A stretch of 64,000 nucleotides of DNA from Aulosira sp. ZfuVER01 (GTDB taxonomy: Bacteria; Cyanobacteriota; Cyanobacteriia; Cyanobacteriales; Nostocaceae). Shown in pieces: positions 4,858 to 56,720 of the stretch. The stretch lies in the NCBI GenBank assembly GCA_034530615.2, contig JAVRCV020000046.1:1-64000 (forward strand), given 5' to 3'. Made by a program: the position numbers and the translations under genes. How positions within the stretch are numbered: position 1 is the first letter of the stretch; the number at the start of each line of letters is the position of its first letter. The notes below the pieces were generated by a model, which had not been told where the DNA came from, ran no database searches, and was given only the letters and a program-made list of their open reading frames with translations.

Positions 4858-7800
4858 CTACAACGGAGGGAACCTCCGCAACGCAGTGGCTCCCCTGCCC
4901 TCTGCCTTTAAATCATCGCAGAGATGCCTGTCACTCTCACTCAAATTAACATTAGGATTCTTTAAATAAACTTGCAACCACTTGCAACCCCGCACCAACA
5001 ACTCATCTAAATTCTCCACAGGCCACAACCGCGCTGTATTATCATCTGATGCGGTGGCGATGGTTTTGCCATCGGGGCTAAAACTCACACTCCAGACACC
5101 GCCGTGATGCCCTTTGAATTCTTGTAGGATTTGCCCTTGCAGGTTCCACAACCGCGCTGTATTGTCCAATGAGGCGGTAGCGATGGTTTTGTCGTCGGGG
5201 CTAAAACTCACCAATAAGACAACGCCGTGATGCCCTTTGAATTCTTGTAGGATTTGCCCTTGCAGGTTCCACAACCGCGCTGTATTGTCATCTGATGCGG
5301 TAGCTATGGTTTTGCCGTCGAGGCTGAAACTCACACCCCTGACACTGTCCTGATGACCTTTAAATTCTTGAACTAGTTGCCCTTGCAGGTTCCACAACCG
5401 TGCTGTTTTGTCATCTGATGCAGTGGCGATAGTTTTGCCGTCGGGGCTGAAACTCACACCCCTGACACTGTCCCGATGACCTTTAAATTCTTGAACTAGT
5501 TGCCCTTGCAGGTTCCACAACCGTGCTGTTTTGTCATCTGATGCAGTGGCGATAGTTTTGCCGTCGGGGCTGAAACTCACACTATTGACACCGCCCTGAT
5601 GCCCTTTGAATTCTTGAACTAGTTGCCCTTGCATGTTCCACAATCGCGCTGTTTTGTCTGAGGAGGCGGTGGCAATAGTTTTGCCGTTGGGGCTGAAACT
5701 CACACTTAAGACACTGTCCTGATGCCCTTTAAATTCTTGAACTAGTTGCCCTTGCAGGTTCCACAACCCTGCTGTTTTGTCCAATGAAGCGGTGGCGATG
5801 GTTTTGCCGTCGGGGCTGAAACTCACACCCCAGACACTGAACTGATGACCTTTAAATTCTTGAACTAGTTGCCCTTGCAGGTTCCACAACCGCGCTGTAT
5901 TGTCCGAGGAGACGGTGGCGATGGTTTTGCCGTCGGGGCTGAAATTCACACCCCAGACACTGTCCCGATGACCTTTGAATTCTTGTAGGATTTGCCCTTG
6001 CAGGTTCCACAACCGCGCTGTATTGTCCAATGAAGCGGTGGCGATGGTTTTGCCGTCGGGGCTGAAACTCACACCCCAGACACTGAACTGATGACCTTTA
6101 AATTCTTGAACTAGTTGCCCTTGCAGGTTCCACAACCGCGCTGTATTGTCCAATGAAGCGGTGGCGATGGTTTTGCCGTCGGGGCTGAAACTCACACCCC
6201 AGACACTGAACTGATGACCTTTAAATTCTTGAACTAGTTGCCCTTGCAGGTTCCACAACCGCGCTGTATTGTCAGATGAGGCGGTAGCTATGGTTTTGCC
6301 GTCGGGGCTGAAACTCACACTATTGACACCGCCCTGATGCCCTTTGAATTCTTGAACTAGTTGCCCTTGCAGGTTCCACAACCGCGCTGTTTTGTCAGAT
6401 GAGGCGGTGGCGATGGTTTTGCCGTCGGGGCTAAAACTCACACTATTGACACCGCCCTGATGCCCTTTGAATTCTTGAACTAGTTGCCCTTGCAGGTTCC
6501 ACAACCGCGCTGTTTTGTCAGATGAGGCGGTGGCGATGGTTTTGCCGTCGGGGCTAAAACTCACACTATTGACACCGCCCTGATGCCCTTTGAATTCTTG
6601 AACTAGTTGCCCTTGCAGGTTCCACAACCGCGCTGTTTTGTCAGATGAGGCGGTGGCGATGGTTTTGCCGTCGGGGCTAAAACTCACACTATTGACACCG
6701 CCCTGATGACCTTGAAACTGGTTGCGTTCTTTAATATTGCTCAGAATGGTATGCAAAGCATAAATCGGGCTAAAAGCTGGGTATTGTTCTAGTGGGCGAC
6801 CATCTTTGACAATATTTTTCAACTCTTTACTACTGTGCATTGCCGACATCAGCGATTCTAACTCGGCAGATTCAAATTGTCTTAAGGCATTAACACCCGC
6901 CCGTTCTAAGTTTGTTCCTTGCAATGCTTCTTTTTGTGCTGCTTGGGCGGCAATTTTTGCGCTTTGTGCTTGTGTAAGGTTTGCTTGTGCTTTACTTAAA
7001 GTCTCGTCAGCTTGTCTAGCTTTTAATTCTGCATCCTGTTGTTGTTTTTCTGCCAGTTTTACTTTATCTTCAGCAATTTTTACATTTGTGTTAGCCGTTT
7101 TAATACTCTCTTCTGCTTGGACGTTTTTCTCTTGTAATGTTCCTGCTTGCTGCTTTACCTTTTCTAAATCTGCTTTAGCAGTTAACAAGTTTAGCTTTGC
7201 CTGTTGCGTCGCCTGTTCTGCTAATTTTGATTTATCTTCTGCGGTTTTCTTAGTTTTTAATGCCTCTTGATAGTTTGTTTCTAAACCTTTCTTTTTATTT
7301 TCTAAGTCTTGCGCTTTTTTCTGAATTTCTCCCAGTCGCTTTTCTGTTTGTCGCTTTTGTAAATTTACATTTTCTAGATTGATATTCGCTTCTGTCATTT
7401 TTGTAAGTGAGTCTTGCTTCCCTGCATTGGCAATATTTGCTTCCTTAATTTTATTGACTGCATACAAAGCAGCCATACCTGCCACTACCAATAAAACTAT
7501 TGCTAAACTAGAACTTACCACCAAACTCTTACGCCCTTGCTTAATTTTTTGTTCAGCTTCTCGGTTAGCATCGGCTAATATCTTCTTAGCTGCTTGTTCG
7601 CGCTGTAAATTTTCTTCGGCTTGCAAACGTTGCTCACGTTCCCTCGCTAATTCTTCTAACAAGTCATTTCCCTGTTGCTGGCGAATCAGATCAACTAAAT
7701 AATCATGCACTAATTGATAACGTTCCGCCGGAGATTCTTGTAACAGCAATACCAACCCAGATTTAACAAAAATCTCCAATACCAAATCTAATTTCTCGGC

Positions 7801-10326
7801 TGATGTTGCTAAATCTGCGGCTAACTCAGCTTTAGTTTTTAAAGGACGTGTTCCATTTTCATCAGTTAATAAATATAAAACTAATCTCGCAGTACGTTCA
7901 TTAACTGCACCACAATCTTTAATTACTTCCTCTAAAAATCGCTCAACTAGTTTTTCTTTAGTCCCCGCCTGACGATACTTTACTAAAGTCGTAATTTTCT
8001 CAGTTTGCAATTGCGCCCCTACAATTTGCAACTCAATTGGGCGTACTTCGCCAATATCACCCGCCAAATCTTTTACCAATTCATCAATCAGGTTAGGCTC
8101 TAAATAAAAATGTGTCTTCTCCGTCAAACTCTGAATTACTGTCTTAGCATCTTCAGATGAAAAATTACCTAAATAATAACGAATATTTTTATCGAGAATA
8201 TTATTATTAATTACTTTTAAATCATATATCCTGTCTAATTCTAATAAATAGTGTAAATAATCTTCCCGCAAAGACAAAATCACCTTGACAAAAGGAATAT
8301 CTAAACAGACGCGCAGAAATTTATAAAACGGTCGCCTTTGAGCTTGGTCTTTATAAACAAAGAAAAACTCTTCAAATTGGTCAAATATTAAAACTGTTAA
8401 TAAATTCCGTCTTTCATTGTTCCGCAACTGCTCTAATATATCTTCCGCAGAATTTAGAAATATTCCCTGCAATCTCTCAACACTTTCTGCAAAAAGCCGT
8501 CCCAACATCCCTACCCAATCTGTATAAACTCGCAACAAAATTGGTAAAGCATCTCGCTCACCAATTGGTTGTTGTTGCAAAGCTGGGATTAATCCTCCTT
8601 GTAAAATTGAACTTTTCCCGACTCCTGACTGTCCGTGAATTACAGTTAATTTATGTTCAGTACTGCTAACTCTTTCGCGTAAACGCCGCAGATCTTGTAC
8701 TCGGCTAGAAACTGCAATTTCTTGAGCAATTGTTTCTGTATTTTCTGCTTGTACCTGTGCGGGGTTAATTGCCTGTCGCTGCGGGTTAAGATAAGATGCA
8801 CCAATAAAAGCACGAAAACCATATTGCTGTTCAATTTGTAATTGCTCTTGCTTGAGATGAAAAGCATCTAAATATCTAGCTTGCTCAAAGTAAAGTTCGC
8901 GCAATCTTGACAAAATAGAGATATATAATTGCGGGTTGTACTGAGGATTACTTTCTGATTTTGCGAGTTCTAAGGTATTAATTTCTGCTTCTACTTCGCC
9001 TAAACCTCTTTGAGAACGTGCTAAGAGAAATAGATATAAACTACGCTCATGGGTTTGTGCTATATCTACTTGGTTTTTAGATATAAAAAATCGTAACCAT
9101 GGCATTGCGAATGGAACGAAGTGGAGTGAAGCAATCGCAATATTTCGGGATTGTTTCGCTTCGTTAATAGTGGGTTGAGATTGCTTCGCTTCGTTAATAG
9201 TGGGTTGAGATTGCTTCGCTTCGCTCGCAATGACATTTAATATAGTTAAGATTTCTAATGCTTGTTCAGCAAATTGATGAGCTTCATTCCAACGAGACTG
9301 CTGTAACGCCACCTCTGCCAAAAAACCATAATCTTGAGCTATCTGTCGCGGTTTAGCATACTCTTGATGCAGTAATAAAGATTGCTCGGCAAGGCTTTGT
9401 AAATCGCTCCATGCTTGTAAGCTGCGCAGTACTTCACCCAATTTACTAATATATTCAGCAGTTAAATCCGGCTTTTGTGCTTGCTCAAAAATCTCAATAG
9501 CTTGCTGAACATAATTTCTTGCAGCTTGCCAATAGCTTTGATTTTCTCCCCCATCAATACTAGCTTGGCGTTGATATGCTAAAGCAATATGCGCTAATAA
9601 TATACCTTGCCGTTCTAAATGATTACTTTGTCGCCAAAAACCCAAGCTTTGCTGATAATGTGCTAAAGCCGAATCTATTCTGTCATGTAAATAATCATCT
9701 AAACCAATTACAAATTCTAGACTAGCTTGAATCGCTGGCTCTAAAACTTGCTCCCGGCTTTGTAAATCTTGTTGAGCAGTTGTGAGTTCCCAACAAATTT
9801 GCGGATTGGGGATAACATCACCAGCAAATATTTCATCAGTCTTTTGCCGTAAAAACTCTATTAAATTATTATTAGTATTATTAAAATTAATTGTTGTCGC
9901 CCAATTATCCAAATCTGCTGCTAAACGAATCATCTTTTGCAGAACTTGGTCATTAATCCACAACAAAGTAGGAAAAGGAAAGTTTTTTCTAAACTCTTCC
10001 CTGACTTGGTTAGCCGCAGTTAATACCGTATCAATATCTTTAACTGATTCCAAACCAAAAACCATTAAAGCTGGTGGCTGTTCATCTCCCAATTCTGCTT
10101 TAATAGCCGTGTAAAGCGTTTTCACCGATGTAGGTAAAGTAATTTCGCGGATTTCTACGGGAGATAATTCGTGCAGGCGTTGCACCATACGCTGACGCAA
10201 AGCATCATAATTACAGCGTAGGAGTATCAGCGAGAATTCGCCTTGAGAAAGGGTAATTGCTCTTACTAGCGTTCGCAATGATCTTTCGTTTTCAGCGTCT
10301 AAATTTTCCGATTCTTCATGATTCAT
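4858..10326 (-). CDS. Large STAND-type (nSTAND1-like) NTPase: N-terminal domain, TPR, P-loop, TM, coiled coil, 14 WD40 repeats
   Basis: Walker A HGQSGVGKSS, Walker B LIFDQFEEFF, hydrophobic helix SLAIVLLVVAGMAALYAV, 14 GH…W repeats. ATG at 10326 (MNHEES) preferred because the upstream extension runs through a repeat element. Confidence 0.85.
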   Translation of the reverse strand: MNHEESENLDAENERSLRTLVRAITLSQGEFSLILLRCNYDALRQRMVQRLHELSPVEIREITLPTSVKTLYTAIKAELGDEQPPALMVFGLESVKDIDTVLTAANQVREEFRKNFPFPTLLWINDQVLQKMIRLAADLDNWATTINFNNTNNNLIEFLRQKTDEIFAGDVIPNPQICWELTTAQQDLQSREQVLEPAIQASLEFVIGLDDYLHDRIDSALAHYQQSLGFWRQSNHLERQGILLAHIALAYQRQASIDGGENQSYWQAARNYVQQAIEIFEQAQKPDLTAEYISKLGEVLRSLQAWSDLQSLAEQSLLLHQEYAKPRQIAQDYGFLAEVALQQSRWNEAHQFAEQALEILTILNVIASEAKQSQPTINEAKQSQPTINEAKQSRNIAIASLHFVPFAMPWLRFFISKNQVDIAQTHERSLYLFLLARSQRGLGEVEAEINTLELAKSESNPQYNPQLYISILSRLRELYFEQARYLDAFHLKQEQLQIEQQYGFRAFIGASYLNPQRQAINPAQVQAENTETIAQEIAVSSRVQDLRRLRERVSSTEHKLTVIHGQSGVGKSSILQGGLIPALQQQPIGERDALPILLRVYTDWVGMLGRLFAESVERLQGIFLNSAEDILEQLRNNERRNLLTVLIFDQFEEFFFVYKDQAQRRPFYKFLRVCLDIPFVKVILSLREDYLHYLLELDRIYDLKVINNNILDKNIRYYLGNFSSEDAKTVIQSLTEKTHFYLEPNLIDELVKDLAGDIGEVRPIELQIVGAQLQTEKITTLVKYRQAGTKEKLVERFLEEVIKDCGAVNERTARLVLYLLTDENGTRPLKTKAELAADLATSAEKLDLVLEIFVKSGLVLLLQESPAERYQLVHDYLVDLIRQQQGNDLLEELAREREQRLQAEENLQREQAAKKILADANREAEQKIKQGRKSLVVSSSLAIVLLVVAGMAALYAVNKIKEANIANAGKQDSLTKMTEANINLENVNLQKRQTEKRLGEIQKKAQDLENKKKGLETNYQEALKTKKTAEDKSKLAEQATQQAKLNLLTAKADLEKVKQQAGTLQEKNVQAEESIKTANTNVKIAEDKVKLAEKQQQDAELKARQADETLSKAQANLTQAQSAKIAAQAAQKEALQGTNLERAGVNALRQFESAELESLMSAMHSSKELKNIVKDGRPLEQYPAFSPIYALHTILSNIKERNQFQGHQGGVNSVSFSPDGKTIATASSDKTARLWNLQGQLVQEFKGHQGGVNSVSFSPDGKTIATASSDKTARLWNLQGQLVQEFKGHQGGVNSVSFSPDGKTIATASSDKTARLWNLQGQLVQEFKGHQGGVNSVSFSPDGKTIATASSDNTARLWNLQGQLVQEFKGHQFSVWGVSFSPDGKTIATASLDNTARLWNLQGQLVQEFKGHQFSVWGVSFSPDGKTIATASLDNTARLWNLQGQILQEFKGHRDSVWGVNFSPDGKTIATVSSDNTARLWNLQGQLVQEFKGHQFSVWGVSFSPDGKTIATASLDKTAGLWNLQGQLVQEFKGHQDSVLSVSFSPNGKTIATASSDKTARLWNMQGQLVQEFKGHQGGVNSVSFSPDGKTIATASDDKTARLWNLQGQLVQEFKGHRDSVRGVSFSPDGKTIATASDDKTARLWNLQGQLVQEFKGHQDSVRGVSFSLDGKTIATASDDNTARLWNLQGQILQEFKGHHGVVLLVSFSPDDKTIATASLDNTARLWNLQGQILQEFKGHHGGVWSVSFSPDGKTIATASDDNTARLWPVENLDELLVRGCKWLQVYLKNPNVNLSESDRHLCDDLKAEGRGATALRRFPPL
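5020..6720 (-). repeat. 123-bp near-identical tandem repeats encoding WD40 units
   Basis: 14 copies of GHxxxVxxVSFSPDGKTIATASxDxTARLWNLQGQLVQEFK; neighbouring units are nearly identical in DNA. Confidence 0.95.
9101..9234. repeat. Short dispersed repeat (GTCATTGCGAGCGAAGCGAAGCAATC type) inside the CDS, with an internal 30-bp tandem repeat
   Basis: Inverted ends ggcattgcga…tcgcaatgac; 30-mers at 9149 and 9179, partial at 9209; translated as VIASEAKQSQPTINEAKQSQPTINEAKQS. Confidence 0.8.
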
Positions 10327-10518
10327 AACATAATATGTAGGGTGGGCATTGCCCACTGAAACCCGGATATGGTTGGTATTGCTGATTATTTCAAGATGTT
10401 GGCGGTGCGTTAGATTTCTAATTGATAGGGCGCTAAAGCGCAACTACAAACATTTTTTATTACAACATTTGCTACTACGTTATTCATCTCTTTTCCAATG
10501 GCCTATGCCCATTTTCCA

Positions 10519-15823: not shown

Positions 15824-18800
15824 TTACCGATCGCAGATATGGCGATCGCTATTGTTTACATTGGGGTTATTTTGTAGGTAATCTTTGATTTGCAAGCATC
15901 CCCGCCGCCTAAGGTCATCCAAATTTAAATCCCATACTTTTACCCCAACATCTTCACTTGCACTAATTAGCGCCTTACCATCAGGAGTGAAGCTGATGCT
16001 ATTAACTTTACCAGGATGACCTAATAGGGTTTTGAGTAAAGTGCGATCGCTAATATTCCACAGCTTAATTGTACCGTCAGCGCTGCCAGAAGCTAGTATT
16101 TGGCTGTTTGGCAGAAAACTCAAACTCGTTACACCAGCCGTATGTCCAGCGAGAGTGGTAATTAAAGTCCCGTCAGCGACGTTCCAAAGTTTGATATTGT
16201 TATCTAAACTAGCAGCAGCCAGGATTGTGTTATCTGGACTAAATTTTACAGATGCGATCGCTAGTCCATTTCCCTGTAAAGTTCTGACAAGACTACCATC
16301 AAGCCTCCAAAGTTTGACTGTCTTATCGTAACTGCCGGAAGCTAGCATTTGACCATCAGTACTAAAGCTAACGCTGGTTATTTCATCAGTATGTGCTTTG
16401 AGAGTTTGTAGTAATTTCCCATCTGAAATTTGCCATAATTTGATAGTTTTATCTGCATTACCAGAAGCCAGCACCTTCCCATCAGAACTAAAACTAATAC
16501 TAGTTACTCGTGCTGTATGTCCTGTGAGTGTTTGCACTAGAGAATTATTTGCGATATTCCATAATTTAATTGTTTTATCGTCACTGGCAGCAGCGATAAT
16601 TTTGCGATTAGGACTAAAATCTACAGCGTAAATTATCCCTTGATTTCCTAAAATAGTTTTTATAAATTTTCCATTATCTTCCCATATTTTAATTTTGCCA
16701 TCCCAACCAGCCGCAGCAAATATTTTGTTATCAGGACTAACACTCACACTATAAAAACTAGTTTTATCCCGGTTTGTTGCAGAATTATTTACTCGCCAAA
16801 GTCTAACAGTTTTGTCAGCACTAGCAGAAGCGATGATTTTACCATCAGGACTAAAGCTAATCTGATTAATTTGTGCGCCATGCCCTCTGAAAATTTGCTG
16901 TATTTCTATACTTGATTTATCTTGAATACTCCATACTTTCAGTATTGCATCAGCATCACCAGCAGCGAGCAATTTACCATCTGGGCTAAAGCTGATACTG
17001 TTAATTTGATTTGTATTACCTTCAATAGTTTGTAAAAGTATGCCTTGACGATTCCAAAGTTTAATAGTTTTATCCCCACTAGCAGAAGCTATAAATTTAC
17101 CATCGGGGCTAAATCTAACACAAGTCACTCGTTCTTTATGCCCTGACATTGTTTGCAATAACTTCCCATTTGCTTGCCAAAGCTTGACTAAATTATCTTC
17201 ACCACCTGAAGCGATTACTTGACCATCAGGACTTAAGCTAACAGTATTTACCCAACCCTTATGAGCATTCCAGCTTTTAATTAAACTGCCATCGATACGC
17301 CATAATTTGATAGTTTTATCTCGGCTATTAGAAATAAGCGTTTTATCATCTGGACTAAAATCTACACTATTTATAATATCAGTATGCCCAGTAAAAATTT
17401 TGATTAGCTTGCTATCTATAGTATATATTTTAATAATTTTATCTGTACTTGTAGCAATAAATTTCCCATTGTGGCTGAAATTAATATCTATAAATCTACT
17501 TTGATTATCAGTTATAGTATTAATTAATTTCCCTTCTGTATTCCAAATTTTAATTGTACCGTCATCGCTAGCAGAGGCGATAATTTTTCCATTAGGGCTA
17601 AAACTTACAGCATTAACTTGTTGACTATGACCTTGTAAGCGATTAAGTTCTTGAGTTTGCTCAACAGCTTGCTGAAGAGTTGCTACAGTTGCTAACTGAA
17701 TATCTTTGTCTGGTGCAAACACCCGCTTTACTTCTCGCCCAGCTTTTACACTGGCAATTAAAGCTTCTAGTTGCTGATTTGATAATAATAATGCTTCCGA
17801 TGAGGCATTCAAAGCAGAAATTTCGCGTAACTGCGCTGCTTGTTTTTGAAAATAAGCTAATCCACCCAAACCACTAGCAGCAATTCCCAAAACGCTGATA
17901 ACTGCAATAGCTTTTTGCGCTTGTCGAAGTCGCTTTTTCTGTTCAAATTGTTGTCGTTGTCTTTCTTCTAAACAAGCAGCAATGAAACGTTGAACATCTT
18001 GAGATAACTCATCCGTATATTTGACATAGATTTCTTCCGCCTCTGCCAAACGGATACCTTGCAACAAAAAATCAGCTTCTTCAGAATTATATTTCCACAA
18101 AGCTGCCGCTTGTTCAATTTGACGTTGCGATCGCAACCTACTGCGATTCTCCTCCAACCACCAGCGCAAAGTTGACCAATGGCGAATCAATATTTCATGC
18201 GCCACCTCAATAGTTACCGCCGACGCATTAGGACTGACACGGAGACTGTCTGACGCGGAGACGCGGAGAGATTTTAATGATAGATTACTCGAACTAGATA
18301 TCACAGATTCTCCCTCATCTGCATATCTTCCCATCTCCGTGTCCCCGCGTCCCCGCGTCCCCGCGTCTCCTTTACTCTCCTCTTCCAAATTCACCACCAC
18401 TAACTTCGCAGCAGTTAACACTTGCAGCGTTCTTTCCACCAACGCCGCCGGATATTTTTGCACCACTAACTCTGATTTCAGCACCCTGCGCCTGGTATCT
18501 TCTGTACCATCGCCTAATTGAGTGAGAGAGAGAAAAATCCACCTTGCACAATCTTGAGCTTGGGTATCTAAACTTTCATAAACCGCTTGGGCTTTACGTT
18601 CCAATGCGCCCTTAATTCCACCCACCTGTTGCTGATACGCCGCTAGAGTCAGTTCCCCCTCTTGCCGAAATTCCCACAACTGGTCTAGTACAAATTCTAA
18701 CAGCGGTAAATCTCCCGCCGAGTGGTTTAACTCCTGTACCAGTACTTCCACCAGTTCCGGTTCTACTTTTAAGCTGACTTGTTCCGCTGGATTAATAATG

Positions 18801-21091
18801 ACACGCCGATAATCGCGATCGCTCAAATTAGGCGGAACTAAAACACTCGATTCTTGCAATAAACTCGCCAGTGCAGGTACTTCCAAGCAAGCAGCAATAA
18901 AATCTGCCCGCAAAGTAACGACTAATTTAAACTTATCAGCAGCATATTCTATTGCTCCCAACACCAAATCTAAAAATCGCTGTCTATCTTCACTAGGCGC
19001 AAGCGTAAACAATTCCTCAAACTGGTCTACCACCAACACCACCACAGTTTCAGGCCGGCTACGCAACCAGTAAACAAAGCCTTCCACCCCCTGATACAGC
19101 ATCCCCTCTAACACCAGTTCAGGAGACGAAGAATCTTCAATTCCCCCTTGTCCCCCCTTTCCCCGCGTCCCCGCGTCACTCCGTCTCCGTGTCTCCGTAT
19201 CCCCTCCCAACCGCTTCGCCAACTCTTCCAACGGACGCGCACCGGGACGCAAACATTTAATTAACCAAGAATCGCTTCCCGGTAATTGTTTACCAAGACG
19301 CAATTGCGCCATTAATCCCGCTTGTACAACGGAAGATTTACCACTACCAGAAGCACCCACTACAGCTAAGAAAGATTTATGTGCTATCTGACTAATTAAA
19401 TGCTGGGTTAAAGATTCTCTACCAAAAAAATATTGCGCATCTTCTTCAACAAAAGCCCTTAATCCCCGGTAAGGACAAATTTTTAAATCTAATGCTGCTT
19501 TTTTATGACTACGTGACCCAGTTGTAGCAGGAATAATTTCAATTACACCTTGAGTTCCTGATAGCCAAAAATGCAGTGGTAGAAATGGGGTACTTTGTGT
19601 TGCTAGTTGAATTTGCAATTGCGTAATCCAACCTGCTACAGATAAACCTGCTGGTTGATTAGCAGCTTTTAAAGTAGCGATAAGTATTTGCGCAAAGAAT
19701 TCTGGATTATCTTTTGGGGAAGTAGCAGCAATAATACATTGCCCCTTTTCCAATTCTAACTGCAAGTCTTCCACCCATTCCTGAATGGAAGAAACAACAG
19801 TTGCGACTACAGAAAAATCTAAAATAATGATTTGCTGGGATATTTGCGAACGGCGTAATTGTTGCCTTAACCAAGAACGACTGAGCCAAATATCTTCGGC
19901 TATTAATAATGCTGCTTCTCCTGCTGGGGTTTCTTCTAAAATTCCGCGTAGATATAACAATACAGTTGCAGCTTCTTCATTTCTGGCGTGGCGTTGTTGA
20001 TTTGCCGAACCTAAACATTCTTGAATAGCAGCACGAACGTCCTTAGCAGTTGTTTCCACCGAACGAGCCACATATTCTAACTCAAAATCGCCAGCATCAA
20101 CCAATATCTTACTAAAATCTAGAGTTGTTTGATAGCCGCTAAATCTCTCAATTACTAGCGCTATTCTTGAAGGGGTCGATTCTGCGATCGCCGGAATTGA
20201 ACCTAAAATTAATTCCCCGACTCCTTCAACGATTCGCTTAGGTGTTTGTAAGGGGTATTCGCTAAAAAGTTGGGTATCTCCTTTACCGCGTTTTTGTTGA
20301 TTAATTAAGCGTAACTGTTGATTAGTTTTATCAATATATTGCAACGTTTGATGATAAACATAGCGATAAAGCCCATCAGCAAAAATTACACCTTGGGCAT
20401 CAGCAGCATCACCATTTAAACCCCGCATTAAAAAATAAGTAAATACCCCATGACCCAGTTCGGGAAACTCCCAAGATTGCTGATTAATATCGCAGGAAAG
20501 TAATGCATAAAAGCCTTTACCTTTACTAGCATTACGCTGCAAAGCGTCTACTAATTGCGGAGTAGGATTTAGCAATGGTTCTGCAACTGCTCCCCTCAGA
20601 GTCATTCCCCCGCTATGGCAAGCATCCAACCACACTAACTGATTTTGTACCCCACTTTTACTTAACTGTGCTAACAGTTCTTTAACAGGTAAACCAGTCT
20701 TTTCTAAATTATCTTTGTGCGTATCTGCCAAACACAAAAATGCTTCTTGAGTATTTGGCTGTAGCATTCCATGACCAGAAAAATAAAATAGAACCGTGTC
20801 AATCGGTTGGGCATCAACAGCAATTTGCCGTAAACTTTCGCGCACAGTTGCTAATAGTGGCAACTGATGAGCAAAATCGTGATAAATTTTTACCTGTCTT
20901 TGGGGAAACTGTTCTTTAGTTGCGCTTGCTAAAGCTTCAGCTAATACCTGACAATCAACTGCTGAATAACGTAGCGAAGGAAGTTGATCGTCTTGGTATT
21001 GATTGACACCCACCAGTAACAACCACAATTTCGGGGCAATTGTTTGTTTAGCTTGACTTGAACGACTGGTAGTAACACCGCGTGGACACAT
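15824..21091 (-). CDS. Caspase (peptidase C14)-STAND NTPase-TM-WD40 protein
   Basis: Catalytic dyad FSGHG / LDACHSG; CPYRGL; Walker [10 protein letters not shown]; Walker B VVDQFEE; TM helix; many diverged WD40 repeats. Confidence 0.9.
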
Positions 21092-49840: not shown

Positions 49841-51379
49841 TTATTCACGATTCATCCGAATTAAATCCGTCAAAATGCTATCCAAACTACCATTAACTTG
49901 AATTTTCTCAATCTTCTCAGCAATTCGCTCTAATACTTCCAACTCCTTCAAACGCAACGCCACAGGGTTATCCTCCATCACCTTGGCAGTATTCAACATA
50001 CTGCGAGTAGCAGCAGTTTCTTCACGACGGCGGACTACATTTGCTTGGGCGGCTTTTTCCGCTTCCACTACTTTGCTCAAAATAGTCTTAATTTCACCGG
50101 GGAGAATAATATCTTTCACCCCAACTGAATCTACTTCAATTCCATAGTCTGCGGTTTTTTGGCGAATGTAGTCAGAAATACTTCTATCAATCGCGCCTTT
50201 ATCCTCCAGTAACGCATCCAGAGTTCTTTCGCCAACTGCACCACGCAAAGCAAACTGTAACTCTTTGTATAAATACCCAGCAATATCCGATAAGCCATTT
50301 TTAGCTCTTAAGGGATCGAGTATACGGAAGCCAGCAGTTAAGTTTAAGCGCAAAGGCACTTTATCCTTAGAGAGGATATCTTGACCAGATACTTCCATAG
50401 CTTGTTGGCGCAGGTCAAAAACTTCCGTTTGCAAAGAACGCCCAAACACCCACCATGCGTGCTTTCCTGGCTGGAGTTGTGTTTGAAATTCTTGATTAAC
50501 GTACAGCAAACCAACGTATTGTGATGGTACTTCGCAAATATGCAGACTACTGCGGCTAAGAGTAAAAGCCTCTGGTAAACCCGAAACTAACTCAGCAACT
50601 AAGCGAGATGACAACTTAGCATCATTGCTGATGTCAATCACCTCTACCTCAACACCTTGCCAGAAGAGTTTGCGACTACATGGCGCTAGGATCGAAATCA
50701 CCTTACCCTGATAGCGCACAATTGCTACTTGCTGATTCTGTAATTGGACTATTTCACAGTAAGCAGCTACAAACTCCGGATGTCTCTCAATTAAGACATC
50801 TTCCAAAGGAAAGTTTGGATTGGGTAAAATCCGGCTGAGAGTCTGGAGAGAAACATCCCTATTCACAGACCAAAAAGCATACTCACCTGGTTCTAATGGC
50901 CGGACAAAGTTACCTTGCACGTACAGCAAGCCAATCTCATACTCAGAAATTTGGAACTTCTTGATACCATTTAAGGCAATTCCCCGTACTTGCTGCACAA
51001 ACTCAGCAGGTAATTCCAAGCTTTCTTGCAAGTTAAACAGATGAGTTTCTACCTCAATAAAACCACGCCAAAAAGCACGTAATTGATTTGGCCCAACACT
51101 AATCCAATTTTGTCCCAAGCGCACTAAAGCAGCCTGATTGAATCCTGTCCGCACGACTATTAAGTATTGCTGTAACGCTGAACTATGATTGCGCAGCAAC
51201 AGTTCTAGGTTTTCAATCTGAGCTTCTGGTTGGTTAAGATCGTAAGTTTTTACTTGCCAATGCCAACCAACATAAGTATAAGTACTAGGCTGCAAGATTT
51301 TTTTAAAATCACTGCGGTAATATAAAATTCCAATTTCGTTAGGTTTGATATAGAAAGTTTTCCACATAGAAATTTGCAT
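49841..51379 (-). CDS. Slipin (SPFH/band-7) family protein with repeated N-terminal beta units
   Basis: GQDILSKDKV, LDALLE, GVKDIILPGE, RREETAATRS, ALRLKELE; start 51379 or 51367. Confidence 0.88.
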   Translation of the reverse strand: MQISMWKTFYIKPNEIGILYYRSDFKKILQPSTYTYVGWHWQVKTYDLNQPEAQIENLELLLRNHSSALQQYLIVVRTGFNQAALVRLGQNWISVGPNQLRAFWRGFIEVETHLFNLQESLELPAEFVQQVRGIALNGIKKFQISEYEIGLLYVQGNFVRPLEPGEYAFWSVNRDVSLQTLSRILPNPNFPLEDVLIERHPEFVAAYCEIVQLQNQQVAIVRYQGKVISILAPCSRKLFWQGVEVEVIDISNDAKLSSRLVAELVSGLPEAFTLSRSSLHICEVPSQYVGLLYVNQEFQTQLQPGKHAWWVFGRSLQTEVFDLRQQAMEVSGQDILSKDKVPLRLNLTAGFRILDPLRAKNGLSDIAGYLYKELQFALRGAVGERTLDALLEDKGAIDRSISDYIRQKTADYGIEVDSVGVKDIILPGEIKTILSKVVEAEKAAQANVVRRREETAATRSMLNTAKVMEDNPVALRLKELEVLERIAEKIEKIQVNGSLDSILTDLIRMNRE

Positions 51380-51751
51380 AGAGAATTTAGGCAGTCGTAG
51401 CCGACGCAGAAGTTTGATAAAGACATTTATAACTTTGGCGTAGGGAATTTTCCTTAGTTAGTTTTATTTCCACATCGTATATAAACAAGAGATATAGCCA
51501 CTTGTGTTACATTGCTTGTTGCAGCTATAAATAGAGTTAATTGCTATCCAAAATATAATATACTACATATAATACATTATATTTTTAAACTCTGCAAATG
51601 TCGTTTTTTACAGTTCAGCTGCGGGATAATTGCTCTTCAAAACTGGATTAAAGAGGTAACGCACTCATGAGTTTCCTTATGAGCGACGCTGCTGCTACTT
51701 TTTCTAAGACTATCCAAAGGCAATCCAGAAAAAGATAACATCTCTCAAATA

Positions 51752-51852
51752 TAGAAATCATACTTGAATCTTGCTAAGTATACTTAGAAACAAACCTTTG
51801 TATGGCAAGCTTCTAGCTAGTCTGGTTTTTCAGAAATCAAATATGAGTCCTA
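51752..51852. mobile_element. 101-bp MITE with TA duplication (IS630-like behaviour)
   Basis: caaaTA[tagaaatcatacttga…tcaaatatgagtccta]TAtgcc; copy B has the empty site caaaTAtgcc. Confidence 0.85.
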
Positions 51853-52112
51853 TATGCCATTCAGTTTGCCAGTTCCGCCAAAGTAGGATGTGTCAAACGA
51901 AGGGACATACTCAAGTTAGGGAGGAAACAATTGCACAGGCTTCTTAGCTGTGACTACTGAGTATAACGAGTATAAACAGTAGCATAACAACAACATCGCA
52001 GAGTTTACTAAACTAAAACAGATTTTGTCCGTTTCGGCTTTTTTCCCAGTCGCGTAAATGCGAAGTAGCCTTGTCCCTAACAAGGTGCCCGTACCCAGGG
52101 CGAGGGTGTGTT

Positions 52113-52186
52113 TGCTGAAATTACAGGAGTTTACCTGTTACTGATCGCCGATACAGCGATCGCTCTACTAAAAGAGTTAACTTTCA
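52113..52186 (-). pseudogene. Degenerate tRNA, homologous to the tRNA-CAT at 55155-55229
   Basis: tgaaagt-ta-actc…gagc-gatcg…acagg-taaact-cctgt-aatttca: acceptor, D and T stems still recognisable; T and anticodon loops are broken. Confidence 0.6.
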
Positions 52187-52382
52187 AAGGGTAGTAACAT
52201 ATCGTTCCACGGTATACACTCAATCCAAAGGTTGGCGTACCAGTTGGGCATACAGAACCCGCACTAATGCTTTGCAAAATGTCTTCCTACCTCGCTACTC
52301 AATGTAACTCAAGCAAATATGAGGAGACACGCGGTAATTACTTAATGAAATACTCACTTCAAGAGCCAAAGGTTTGAAATTA

Positions 52383-54398
52383 TTAAGCAGCAAGCTGCCT
52401 TTGCTGGTGTAATGGAAGTGAAATCACAAATTCTGTACCTTTACCAAACATAGAATTACACTGTAATTTCCCTTGATGTTTTTCAGTGACAATTTGATAA
52501 CTGATAGATAAAGCCAAGCCTGTACCTTTACCAACAGGTTTAGTAGTAAAAAAGGGATTAAATAATTGTTTTTGTAAAGCTTCAGGAATTCCAACTCCAT
52601 TATCAATAATGCGAATAATTATTTGTTGGTCAATAGTAAGTTCAGTTTGAATACGAATTTGACCTTTACTTTTTCTTGATGAAGTAGACGCGCTTTCTTC
52701 ATTATTAGTTACGGGACGATGAATTACGAATAACTCTTCTATGGCATCAATTGCATTTGTGAGAAGATTGATAAACACCTGATTGAGTTCTCCGGCGTAG
52801 CATTCTACTAGTGGCAGGTCAGCATATTCTTTGATAATTTCAATAGCTGTACGATCTGGTGTAGCCTTGAGGCGGCTTTCTAAAAACATTAGTGTACTAT
52901 CGATACCTTCATAGATATTTACCATCTTCATTTCTGCCTCATCTAACCGTGAAAAGTTTCTCAGAGATAGCACAATTTGTTTAATTCTCTCAGCACCGAC
53001 TTTGATCGAATTCAGCAACTTCGGCAAGTCTTGCATTAAGAAATTAAATTCGATTGCTTCTTCCTCATCTTGAATTTCTACTGCTGGCTGGGGATAGTGA
53101 TGTTGGTAAAGTTGCAGTAATCTGAGCAAATCTTGGATATATTCATGGGCGGGAGTAATATTACTATAAATAAAGCTAACTGGGTTGTTAATTTCGTGTG
53201 CTACTCCTGCTACTAACTGACTTAAGCTAGACATTTTTTCAGCTTGAATCAATTGCGCTTGAGTTTGTTGTAATTCTCGTAAAGCTTGCTCAAGTTCTTG
53301 CGCTTGCTGTTGCAGTGTTTCTTGTTGTTGACTAAGCAACACAACCTGCATTTTTGCTTGTTGAGATAGTTGTATTTGTCGCCAAGCGATAATTGCTGCG
53401 ATTCCAAGCAATCCACCCAATATAGAAGCAAGTAAGTTCAGTGCGTATAGTTGAGATTCAATGTTTTCACGCGGTATAACTAGAGCTATTGACCAATTCG
53501 CTTGTTTGAGATGACCATAAAGAACATATTTGTTAGTGCCATCAATGGAAATAAGTTCTATTCCTTGCTGTTGCTTCACCATTAGACTAGCCAGTGCCGC
53601 TAAGTTAGGATCAGTTGACTCTAGAAAACTAGGAGCAGGTTTTTCTTGTGTTGACATCAACGCTGGATTGGGATGAATAATTGGCTCTCCCTTAGAGTTG
53701 AGTGCAAATGCATAACTACCATTACCGTAATGTAATCTGTTGACTACTTGAGTAATTCGATCTACCTTTAAGCTACCGTTGATAACTCCAATGGGACGAC
53801 TGTTAAGGTCATAACTTTGGCGAATAGGAGAAGCGATCGCCACAGAAGGAATTCCAGTAGTCCGACTGATGAAGGGATCTGATATATTGACTTCTCCTGC
53901 CATTGCTTTTTGAATAAAATCCCGATCCTTGTTATTGGTATCTGCTTTACCTACCTCAGTGTTGTAATAGGAACCGTTCGGCAGCGATACTGCCATTTTA
54001 GAAAATTCCCCAGTGCGCTTAATTTCTGCGTTTAAATATGGTTGAATAACTTTCCAATCTAAAGAACGCGCCACATCTGTATTAGCAATAGTTTGAATTT
54101 CAATAGAGCAAATTGCTAACCATTGATCGATCTCATCAGTTCCTTGACGAACCTGAAGCAGGGCTTTTTCCTGAAGTTGTTGAACAATTAACTCTCTGAC
54201 TATCAAGTAGCTAGCAATACCAATTACCCCTATTGCTAAGGTAGAGCCAATCAAAATCAGTGGTGTTTTCAGATTAGGCAGTTGCTTTTTTGGCACAGGT
54301 ATGGATTGCCTAACTTTGAAAAATTCACGTAATAGTAGATAAGGCATGATAGTCAGCAGTGAAAAACTATAGGTATACTTGTTACCTATAGTTCCCAT
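52383..54398 (-). CDS. Cache-domain sensor histidine kinase
   Basis: Two TM helices around a Cache domain; AHEINNP, QVFINLLTNAIDA, DNGVGI, PFFTTKPVGKGTGL. Start may be 54347. Confidence 0.9.
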   Translation of the reverse strand: MGTIGNKYTYSFSLLTIMPYLLLREFFKVRQSIPVPKKQLPNLKTPLILIGSTLAIGVIGIASYLIVRELIVQQLQEKALLQVRQGTDEIDQWLAICSIEIQTIANTDVARSLDWKVIQPYLNAEIKRTGEFSKMAVSLPNGSYYNTEVGKADTNNKDRDFIQKAMAGEVNISDPFISRTTGIPSVAIASPIRQSYDLNSRPIGVINGSLKVDRITQVVNRLHYGNGSYAFALNSKGEPIIHPNPALMSTQEKPAPSFLESTDPNLAALASLMVKQQQGIELISIDGTNKYVLYGHLKQANWSIALVIPRENIESQLYALNLLASILGGLLGIAAIIAWRQIQLSQQAKMQVVLLSQQQETLQQQAQELEQALRELQQTQAQLIQAEKMSSLSQLVAGVAHEINNPVSFIYSNITPAHEYIQDLLRLLQLYQHHYPQPAVEIQDEEEAIEFNFLMQDLPKLLNSIKVGAERIKQIVLSLRNFSRLDEAEMKMVNIYEGIDSTLMFLESRLKATPDRTAIEIIKEYADLPLVECYAGELNQVFINLLTNAIDAIEELFVIHRPVTNNEESASTSSRKSKGQIRIQTELTIDQQIIIRIIDNGVGIPEALQKQLFNPFFTTKPVGKGTGLALSISYQIVTEKHQGKLQCNSMFGKGTEFVISLPLHQQRQLAA

Positions 54399-54409
54399 TC
54401 CATGAAATT

Positions 54410-54666
54410 TCAGAACATTTTGATTTCATATTTTTCGTTAATACGTTTAATTTGTTTTTGAAACTCTGTACCTTTTTGGGGATTGACCATTGCCACAAAG
54501 TTTGCAAATCCCGTTATTGACGCAATGAGGTTACGTGAGTTGCCCCAATGCTAATTTCCATCGCTGCCGCAATTTCTTCGGCAGTGTTGTATAGCTCTAA
54601 GCCATAATTATTCAAGCATTCGATGTTTCCTTGTTTGCTATTTTTCAAACCCATTGAAACATCCTC
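54410..54666 (-). pseudogene. Internally deleted remnant of a retron-type reverse transcriptase
   Basis: EDVSMGL…YGLELYNTAEEIAAAMEISIG(QL) joined near 54536, with a frame change, to NLIASITGFANFVAMVNPQKGTEFQKQIKRINEKY…*. I recall these as the segments flanking the RT core in cyanobacterial retron-like RTs. No YADD core remains. Confidence 0.65.
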
Positions 54667-55054
54667 TTAAAATATTTACTAATTTGTAATATGCAAACTC
54701 AATTTTATTTGAAAACTCTGCAAATGCAGGTGTTTACAGTTCAGTTGCGGACAAATACATCTCCAAAACTGGATCAAGATTGCTGCTACTTATCCTTAAA
54801 CTACCCAAGGGCAATCTAGAAAAAGAAAACAGCGCTCAAATATGCCGTTCACTTTGCCAGTTCCAGAAATCTAGATCTAACAAGAGAAGGGACATACTCA
54901 AGTTAGGGAGAAATGCATTTGCGCTAGCTTCTTTACTGTTACTACAGACATCACATCGTAATGAGCAGTAGTAAGCACCTACATCACAGAGTCTTTACTA
55001 AAGTTAAATTAGCTACCGTGACGGGGTAGTGTCTTTTGACCCGGACAGGGTTTG

Positions 55055-55127
55055 TGGAGCAGAAAGTGGATTTGAACCACTGACATTTGGATACTAGTCC
55101 AACGAGCTACCACTGCTCTATTCTGCA
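55055..55127 (-). tRNA. tRNA-like gene (fMet-like D and T arms, 6-nt anticodon loop, encoded CCA)
   Basis: gcagaa/ttctgc acceptor, gagc-agtggta-gctc, ttgga-ctagta-tccaa, agtgg-ttcaaat-ccact, cca. Confidence 0.6.
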
Positions 55128-55154
55128 AATTTGCCTTTTTCCCTAGACAAATGT

Positions 55155-55229
55155 TGGTCGAAAGTACAGGAATCGAACCTGCAACCAATCGATTATGAGT
55201 CGATCGCTCTACCAGTGAGCTAACTTCCG
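55155..55229 (-). tRNA. tRNA with CAT anticodon (Ile2 or elongator Met), encoded CCA
   Basis: cggaagt/actttcg, gctc-actggta-gagc, atcga-ctCATaa-tcgat, gcagg-ttcgatt-cctgt, a-cca. Confidence 0.88.
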
Positions 55230-55231
55230 GG

Positions 55232-55301
55232 AGTTTGATGTAGGACTCGAACCTACGCCCCACCGATCGCTTCGGCTGCTCTACCACTGAGCTAATCAAA
55301 C
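55232..55301 (-). tRNA. tRNA-like gene with a 5-nt anticodon loop
   Basis: gtttgat/atcaaac, gctc-agtggta-gagc, gccga-agcga-tcggt, gtagg-ttcgagt-cctac. Confidence 0.65.
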
Positions 55302-55416
55302 AATGGAGTAGTGACGCATTACTCGGCGATATACGCTCAATCCAGAGGTTGGCGCACCAGTCGGGCATACTGAACCCGAACCATAGCTTTGCTTATGTAT
55401 TACTATTCCACTACTT

Positions 55417-55460
55417 AATGTAACATAGGCAAATCTTAGGCGGTAGTGAATAATTACTTA
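55417..55460 (-). promoter_or_regulatory. Putative promoter of ncRNA copy B (-10 TACATT, upstream TAAGTAATTA box)
   Basis: The same two motifs at the same spacing precede copy A (52301-52306 and 52335-52344). Confidence 0.5.
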
Positions 55461-55619
55461 CTTCCAATATTTAGGCAAAAACCATCACATCTCATGGCTG
55501 ATGATACATGACGTAGCTCAAGTTTTAGTAGACTGTTCGGCAGAAAACTGGGATGCGGAAATTGCTACCCATAAAATAGGTAGCAATCTTTGGTGTTCTA
55601 CACCTGATAAAAATTAAGG

Positions 55620-55643
55620 AAGGGTGAGAAATAACCCACCCTG
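55620..55643 (-). terminator. Hairpin downstream of nifH
   Basis: agggtg…caccct immediately after the nifH stop. Confidence 0.4.
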
Positions 55644-55652
55644 TCACATTAT

Positions 55653-56720
<1,068 letters not shown>

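Follow-up and report, generated by a model that had tools for sequence, protein, structure and literature searches.

A covarying structured RNA of heterocystous cyanobacteria, probably of retron type, persists beside a reverse transcriptase remnant in Aulosira sp. ZfuVER01

The 64,000-nucleotide stretch of the Aulosira sp. ZfuVER01 genome analysed here (contig JAVRCV020000046.1, positions 1 to 64,000; hereafter the window) carries two copies of a structured RNA, whose closing stem and branched interior are maintained by compensatory substitutions in homologues from many other genomes. We consider it probable that this RNA is the equivalent of the msr-msd of a clade-10 (type XIII-like) retron that has a fixed chromosomal place in heterocystous cyanobacteria, that has been orphaned of its reverse transcriptase (RT) here, and that probably has a second role independent of the RT. 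Some relatives carry a retron-type RT gene directly downstream of the RNA, and a remnant of this gene lies at the same position in the window. The features on which the argument is built are as follows.

54715..54992, minus strand: structured RNA, copy B (fold z -6.75; family consensus; nhmmer profile match)
51589..52004, minus strand: structured RNA, copy A (alignment to copy B; fold z -5.12; nhmmer match in two pieces)
55302..55397, minus strand: structured 5' leader (alignment of 11 copies; consensus fold; contig ends)
55301..55230, minus strand: tRNA-like module t1 (ARAGORN 'Arg-GCG'; no U33)
55229..55155, minus strand: tRNA-like module t2 (Met-CAT form)
55127..55056, minus strand: tRNA-like module t3 (6-nt anticodon loop)
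52120..52340, minus strand: upstream part of unit A, with a leader copy and a decayed t2-like tRNA remnant (alignments)
54410..54672, minus strand: RT gene remnant (tblastn of P0001, the RT of genome G113, against the window)
52383..54398, minus strand: histidine kinase gene with dCache, HisKA and HATPase_c domains (Pfam), between the RT remnant and unit A
49841..51379, minus strand: SPFH/Band 7 gene, 512 aa (Pfam PF01145, E 1.3e-30), downstream of copy A

Read on the minus strand, the arms of the copy B stem are ACUCUGUGAUGUAGGUG at 54992..54976 and CACCUGCAUUUGCAGAGU at 54732..54715, and they form 17 pairs with one bulged U, just as a sequence-only reading of this DNA had described. The 5' arm of copy A begins with ACUCUGCGAUGUUGUU from 52004 and its 3' arm ends with AACGACAUUUGCAGAGU up to 51589. 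The outer nine pairs are identical in the two copies and the inner pairs are altered yet pairing, including the four changes that the same reading had listed, all of which keep the pair. The minimum free energies (MFE) are -103.5 kcal/mol for copy B and -125.6 kcal/mol for copy A; none of 200 and none of 100 shuffles, respectively, folded as well, and the closing stem is present in both MFE folds. Compared with copy B, copy A contains two insertions, one of about 85 nt and one of about 36 nt.

The interior of copy B is made up of a short hairpin (helix 2) and a large domain that contains two long hairpins, and the family consensus bears out the multi-branched interior that had been suspected from the two copies. 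Two inner hairpins had been proposed as well. The first (UUACUAC/GUAGUAA in one copy, GCUACUG/CAGUAGU in the other) is helix 2, in which 7 of 14 pairs show compensatory change among 28 homologues; the second (CAGUU/AACUG) found no support, since the alignment gives those bases better-supported partners, one example being pair 70/278, where locus L024 has a U-A swap. No ORF was found within the RNA on its own strand, and Rfam returned no family except tRNA, both at gathering scores and, over 51400-55600, at E<=10. An nhmmer profile of the primary sequence matched copy B at 54993..54714 (profile positions 2-280) and copy A in two pieces (52006..51848 and 51752..51588). These are the only two copies in the genome, the remaining matches of the 731-nt query being tRNA genes.

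Conservation of the pairing was quantified in an alignment (A3) of 28 trimmed homologues, for which the consensus contains 109 pairs in 10 helices. Standard pairs were formed in 93.6% of the cells compared to 32-42% in slid controls, two-sided changes were observed at 30 pairs compared to 10-17 in the controls, and none of 500 shuffles attained any of the observed measures. The closing helix, which comprises 18 pairs in the consensus, was paired in 95.6% of the cells, and the stem is thus conserved in homologues beyond the two copies from which it had been predicted. We extended the dataset by adding distant and second copies with mafft --keeplength and removing seven rows that repeated the same places. 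In the resulting 60 distinct homologues, 91.4% of the cells were paired (33-42% in slid controls) and compensatory changes affected 64 of the 109 pairs (30-41 in slid controls), which argues for selection on RNA structure, as had been proposed.

Within the closing helix, the 60 sequences showed two-sided changes at five positions, including columns 10/299 and 19/289. Column 7/302 is UA in 54 sequences and CG in 4, column 16/292 is GC in 45 and AU in 7, and column 14/294 is UA in 32, UG in 17 and CG in 10. G-U pairs made up 13.1% of the paired cells and A-C 2.4%, indicating that it is the minus-strand RNA, rather than an inverted repeat in the DNA, that is constrained. Column 19, at the interior-facing end of the 5' arm, is a G in 55 of the 60 sequences and pairs with C in 45; the bases next to it, (C/U)U, are unpaired. 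A retron would have an unpaired branching G at the 3' end of a1, and the G of column 19 is not clearly unpaired. The short hairpin is absent from L035, L039 and L048, and the tips of the two long hairpins differ in length. Part of the conservation of the 3' arm could come from an overlapping promoter.

Using copy B as the query in BLASTN searches, the RNA was detected in 85 of the 201 genomes sampled from the same family, representing 35 of 68 genera (own genome counted), and in 31 of 301 genomes from 8 families in an order-wide sample. Most of these genomes have one or two copies. The copy in G113, the closest relative and a carrier of the RT, is 91% identical to copy B; 5 of 7 genomes of the window's own genus contain the RNA with no RT match, and many other RNA-bearing genomes lack any RT. 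For the 45 distinct sequences from loci without an RT, 90.6% of the cells were paired and 62 pairs showed compensatory change compared to 28-35 in controls. Judged from these alignments, conservation of the RNA does not depend on the RT. In loci with two copies, copy B and the other upstream copies, which are located away from the SPFH gene, are the better conserved ones. A genome from another family (G219) has two RNA copies 3.1 kb apart.

Of the 85 RNA-bearing genomes in the family sample, 8 have an RT gene that adjoins the RNA downstream and is encoded on the same strand, namely G113, G196, G169, G030, G152, G089 and G182 and, in broken form, G176. The gap from the 3' arm to the gene is 6-60 nt; in G113, the RT gene (P0001, 368 aa) begins about 60 nt past the 3' arm. 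The adjacent RTs match Pfam RVT_1 and have their best PADLOC matches to RT_XIII (E 1.7e-162 and 3.7e-162; next best model 2.5e-92), and they lack the first ~85-95 positions of that profile. P0001 contains the motifs NAxxH (as NATPH), VTG and YVDD. The resemblance of the stem to the a1/a2 repeats of retrons, noted before any relatives had been compared, is strengthened by the presence of an RT_XIII gene so close to the 3' arm. The accompanying statement that the stem lies just upstream of an RT is true of the relatives with intact genes; for the window it has to be replaced by a remnant only.

This remnant occupies exactly the position of the RT in G113. One piece (54672..54547) corresponds to residues 12-53 of the G113 protein, and a second piece in a different frame corresponds to residues ~319-362, reaching 54419, with a stop codon at 54412..54410. 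Residues ~54-318, which contain all RT motifs, have been deleted, so that no msDNA is expected from either copy A or copy B in this genome. A 46-aa ORF at 54654..54514, downstream of copy B, matched no Pfam family. No other retron RT was detected in the genome at E<=1e-20, and the best match elsewhere to another retron-RT model, in further scans that included the RT-DUF3800 models PDLC02957 and PDLC02958 of PADLOC, had an E-value of 3.7e-6. Remnants next to the RNA were also seen in G157 (a fragment) and in G176 (a gene with a stop), suggesting loss in progress rather than gain.

In a midpoint-rooted tree of nine RTs, the RNA-adjacent enzymes were found on both sides of the deepest split and not in a single clade: those of G113 and genus g30 formed one clade, and that of G182 grouped on a long branch with a set of RT_XIII proteins that we refer to as group b. 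The group-b genes stand alone in many genomes, encode proteins of ~470-507 aa with a charged N-terminal extension, and match the RT_XIII profile over its full length (E 2e-200). No SWIM or ARM genes were seen as their neighbours in L046, L047 and L049, the upstream regions of three of them shared no conserved block, and the nhmmer profile of the RNA gave no match near them. General use of the RNA in trans by these enzymes was rejected since five genomes with group-b RTs are without the RNA motif, searched for as one pattern with exact match, and many genomes with the RNA have no RT of any kind. A GC-rich block upstream of the group-b gene of G072 was considered as a candidate ncRNA and discarded; it folds weakly (z -2.36) and is a dispersed repeat with 84 matches. 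This block is located at L046 6880-7125, upstream of the RT_XIII gene, and a similar block is inserted in a hairpin of the RNA in G145 (L019). The G072 gene itself (L046 5326-6738, minus strand) is flanked by sodB-like and rubrerythrin-like genes.

The RNA is the last element of a unit with a constant layout in relatives of several genera, in which a promoter-like stretch is followed by a leader of about 95 nt, two or three tRNA-shaped genes, a spacer and the RNA. A leader hairpin covaries, with CGGG/CCCG in the window and CAGG/CCUG or UGGG/CCCA in relatives, and the spacer between t3 and the 5' arm is variable (55-65 nt). The three tRNA-like genes (55056..55301, minus strand) score 55.9, 68.1 and 53.5 bits against the Rfam tRNA family. 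Two of them, t1 and t3, lack the 7-nt anticodon loop with U33 of a canonical decoding tRNA, while the loop of t2 has the canonical form CU-NNN-AA. The t1 loop in the window reads AAGCGAU or, alternatively, is a 5-nt loop on a 5-bp stem. Across relatives, t1 is mostly without U33 and t3 often has a 6-nt anticodon loop. Homology between units A and B extends upstream of the RNA, where unit A has the leader copy and the decayed tRNA; ARAGORN called no tRNA at 52120..52340.

The tRNA-like modules are orthologous across relatives (L040-L048 and the upstream flanks of L011-L074), with near-invariant D, T and acceptor arms. Their anticodons are highly diverse, with 17 forms in 31 distinct t1 sequences, 14 forms in 47 distinct t2 sequences and 8 forms in 16 distinct t3 sequences. 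Because t2 retains the CU and AA flanks, its variation is concentrated in the anticodon triplet itself. This variability could be due to drift or to diversifying selection. An encoded CCA end is common in t2 and t3. The genome contains a full set of tRNAs elsewhere (74 calls), and t1-t3 are thus extra. Apart from this unit, several tRNA genes are clustered at about 179-181 kb on contig C32 of the same genome (G000); together with the occurrence of many anticodons twice among the 74 calls, the cluster hints at a tRNA array elsewhere.

Logan contigs matching parts of the stretch were obtained from four metatranscriptome runs in four studies, other matching runs being DNA of the likely source sample; the RNA runs shared only small fractions of the sequence words of the stretch. 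Two of the RNA contigs, from different studies (X6 record 5, 577 nt; X9 record 10, 581 nt), span the unit from 55397 to 54719 and 54716, respectively, extending from the beginning of the leader to the base of the closing stem; both are without t3. These contigs derive from relatives and not from this strain, and contigs are no proof of transcription or of exact ends; two independent assemblies bounded by the limits of the unit are nevertheless what a single transcript predicts. The segments 54380-54691 and 55433-55520 had no contig cover, which is uninformative either way. A short run of U residues follows the closing stem. On the other side of the unit there is a NifH-family gene of 333 aa with an N-terminal extension (55653-56654, minus strand); a terminator-like hairpin (55642..55621) comes next, and nifD does not follow. 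In G113 and G163, the same gene also precedes the unit.

Of the 50 loci examined in relatives, 34 have an SPFH gene as the immediate downstream neighbour of the RNA and 8 are of the RT type; in the other 8, the fetched flank was too short or an SPFH gene was not seen. The SPFH proteins are 67-91% identical among these loci and the gap between the RNA and the start of the gene is as short as ~55-60 nt (L063, L064, L066 and L067). In the window, the 3' arm of copy A is overlapped by a -35/-10-like pair (ACGACA-17-TATAAT, 10/12), and a TATAAT-containing block past the 3' arm is conserved in the SPFH-adjacent copies. Promoter-like sites are not enriched in the region, where 9 were found compared to 12.0 expected from shuffles.

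Other neighbours vary. In G113, no histidine kinase gene occupies this place, and unit A comes immediately after the RT. The second RNA copy of genus g30 is situated past the RT and precedes a 190-aa RidA/L-PSP gene (L040 4866-5438 and L041 5308-5880, both on the minus strand) and not directly an SPFH gene; in G030 an IS630-type transposase lies in between. At a distance from both units, the window contains two ORFs of 1861 and 1755 aa (4858-10443 and 15824-21091, minus strand) with tandem repeats of 123-126 nt, 13 copies of which are located at 5023-6798.

Three anatomical features point to a retron: the terminal duplex, the conserved G where this duplex meets the interior and, in the genomes that have one, an RT of the retron clade encoded directly downstream on the same strand. 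In the reading that we prefer, the closing stem would be the a1/a2 duplex. It would bring the conserved G that lies innermost in the 5' arm next to a template start immediately 5' of the 3' arm. Priming from a 2'-OH, the downstream-encoded RT would then reverse-transcribe a portion of the interior to give single-stranded DNA. The RNA would form the final part of a single transcript that runs from the promoter through the leader of about 95 nt, the two or three tRNA-shaped modules and the spacer, and whose end would lie at the base of the closing stem, ahead of the short U run. In the present genome, either copy should be able to fold and neither would be reverse-transcribed by a cognate enzyme.

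The fold has been kept by compensatory change in dozens of genomes without an RT, nearly always in front of an SPFH gene. This persistence, the fixed place and the promoter-like boxes over the 3' arm lead us to infer that the RNA most likely serves a second function without the RT. It may act as a stable RNA, or it may take part in the control of the SPFH gene by way of the -35/-10-like boxes that overlap and follow the 3' arm.

The main rival turns this history around: a lineage-specific structured small RNA with tRNA-like modules, tied to the SPFH gene and of non-retron origin, came first, and an RT that may or may not copy it was placed behind it later in a few lineages. Since an adjacent RT is present in only 8 of the 85 RNA-bearing genomes among the 201 sampled, the RT could be a late guest rather than the original partner, and the prevalence of SPFH-adjacent copies fits such a history. 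Units in tandem in other families (G370, G415, G478 and G287) are spaced about 750 nt apart, too close to leave room for an RT gene. The adjacent RTs belong to two branches of the tree, and five genomes with a group-b RT have no RNA motif. Nevertheless, two RT lineages have the same place and orientation 6-60 nt past the 3' arm, which is what a template relationship predicts, the remnants in the window, G157 and G176 show the RT being lost, and the terminal duplex is a hallmark of retrons. On balance, we regard an RNA-first origin as doubtful, if worth serious attention.

A bolder proposal starts from the retron reading and takes the leader, the three tRNA shapes and the retron-type RNA as a self-standing system of heterocystous cyanobacteria that has outlived its RT. 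The RNA would have been domesticated for an RT-independent task tied to the SPFH membrane protein, and the anticodons would be diversifying under selection rather than drifting, for example as baits or spares in tRNA-cleavage conflicts. We think this unlikely.

We give still less credence to the RNA being chiefly a cis-acting leader, terminator or promoter that controls the downstream SPFH or RT gene, with the stem acting like a terminator or occluding the ribosome binding site. The short distance to the SPFH gene in the four loci named above, the U run after the stem at which the RNA contigs end, the -35/-10-like pair over the copy A arm and the conserved TATAAT block are all compatible with such a function, and the RNA of a type VI retron has been described to repress translation of its effector (bioRxiv 10.1101/2025.10.22.683967). 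However, the better conserved copies, copy B among them, are the ones away from the SPFH gene, a covarying multi-branched structure of 250 nt far exceeds what a terminator needs, and promoter-like sites are no more common here than in shuffled sequence.

The two copies might instead be functionless relics of a dead retron, in which the stem persists for lack of time. The destroyed RT, the absence of a retron RT elsewhere in this genome, the two insertions and decayed tRNA of unit A, and the 91% identity that copy B still shares with the RT-associated copy in G113 would all fit recent decay. The RT-less loci tell against it: 45 sequences from many genera retain 90.6% pairing and 62 compensatory pairs, which indicates long purifying selection without an adjacent RT and makes the relic explanation very improbable.

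We can practically set aside that the arms are the terminal inverted repeats of a small DNA transposon (MITE), as an imperfect 18-nt inverted repeat around ~250 bp present twice in the window might suggest, given just two copies genome-wide, a syntenic place across genera, the strand-specific excess of G-U over A-C, covarying interior helices and no copies found on plasmids. Copy number and the excess of G-U over A-C exclude an inverted repeat at the DNA level. A diversity-generating retroelement (DGR) was also rejected, the differences between copies A and B being of all kinds and neither copy lying in a coding region. Plasmid carriage was dropped after a plasmid search in which only the t2 tRNA part matched, to plasmid tRNA genes.

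If the retron reading holds, a covariation-supported RNA is now available for the cyanobacterial branch of the Mx162-type clade. The presence of an RNA under structural selection in many genomes without an RT makes it testable whether a retron RNA can exist in its own right, and the tRNA-shaped modules with hypervariable anticodons and the conserved SPFH gene provide two further handles. Our literature search found no work joining retrons with SPFH genes, and none joining retrons, tRNA-like modules and cyanobacteria.

Unusually long a1/a2 repeats are a feature of Mx162 and Sa163, both of the clade to which the cyanobacterial RTs are most similar. Transcripts punctuated by tRNAs are processed at the tRNA-shaped modules by RNase P and RNase Z. 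The unit described here resembles such transcripts in that tRNA shapes with a conserved body and a free anticodon are located between two structured RNA parts, and tRNA-guided processing may occur in it. Since 55-65 nt separate t3 from the 5' arm, tRNA cleavage alone would not create the end of the stem.

Retrons have been described as units of an RT, an ncRNA and an effector (PMC6868368). Putative cyanobacterial retron RTs are already in print: the review by Simon 2019 groups those of Nostoc punctiforme and Trichodesmium with Mx162, Mx65, Ne144 and Sa163, and, according to the review, no cyanobacterial retron has been validated and there is no msDNA evidence for any of them (PMC6868368). Mestre 2020 classified the clade of Mx162, Mx65, Ne144 and Sa163 as type XIII and reported signs of vertical inheritance (PMC7736814). 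Our system is like type XIII (RT clade 10: Mxa1/Mx162, Mxa2/Mx65, Sau1/Sa163 and Nex2/Ne144) in that the RTs of the relatives match RT_XIII best, the RNA is directly upstream of the RT in these relatives, on the same strand and with a long terminal duplex, and its presence at a fixed locus matches the vertical inheritance reported for the type (PMC7736814). It is unlike type XIII in that no WH-SWIM (cluster 114) or HEAT/ARM genes were seen among the ORFs beside the RTs in L040, L041, L043 and L046, which include RidA, an IS630-type transposase, DUF3854, SodB, rubrerythrin and others. Furthermore, the RNA here is usually without an RT, upstream of an SPFH gene and preceded by tRNA-like modules, and the adjacent RTs are shorter than the profile at their N-terminal side.

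The architecture of the RNA also appears to depart from the classical one, in which one to three short msr hairpins are combined with one long msd stem-loop (Mestre 2020, PMC7736814); the interior of the cyanobacterial RNA is instead a multi-branch with two long hairpins. As far as the preprint on the type VI Retron-Vpa2 describes it, the 'hybrid RNA' of that system belongs to a different RT clade, contains the effector ORF within the RNA and is accompanied by its RT, in contrast to the RNA studied here, which has no internal ORF on its strand and mostly no RT. The two are alike in that a structured retron transcript would also control an adjacent gene, and Retron-Vpa2 is therefore a possible model for the relationship between the cyanobacterial RNA and the SPFH or RT gene just downstream of it (bioRxiv 10.1101/2025.10.22.683967).
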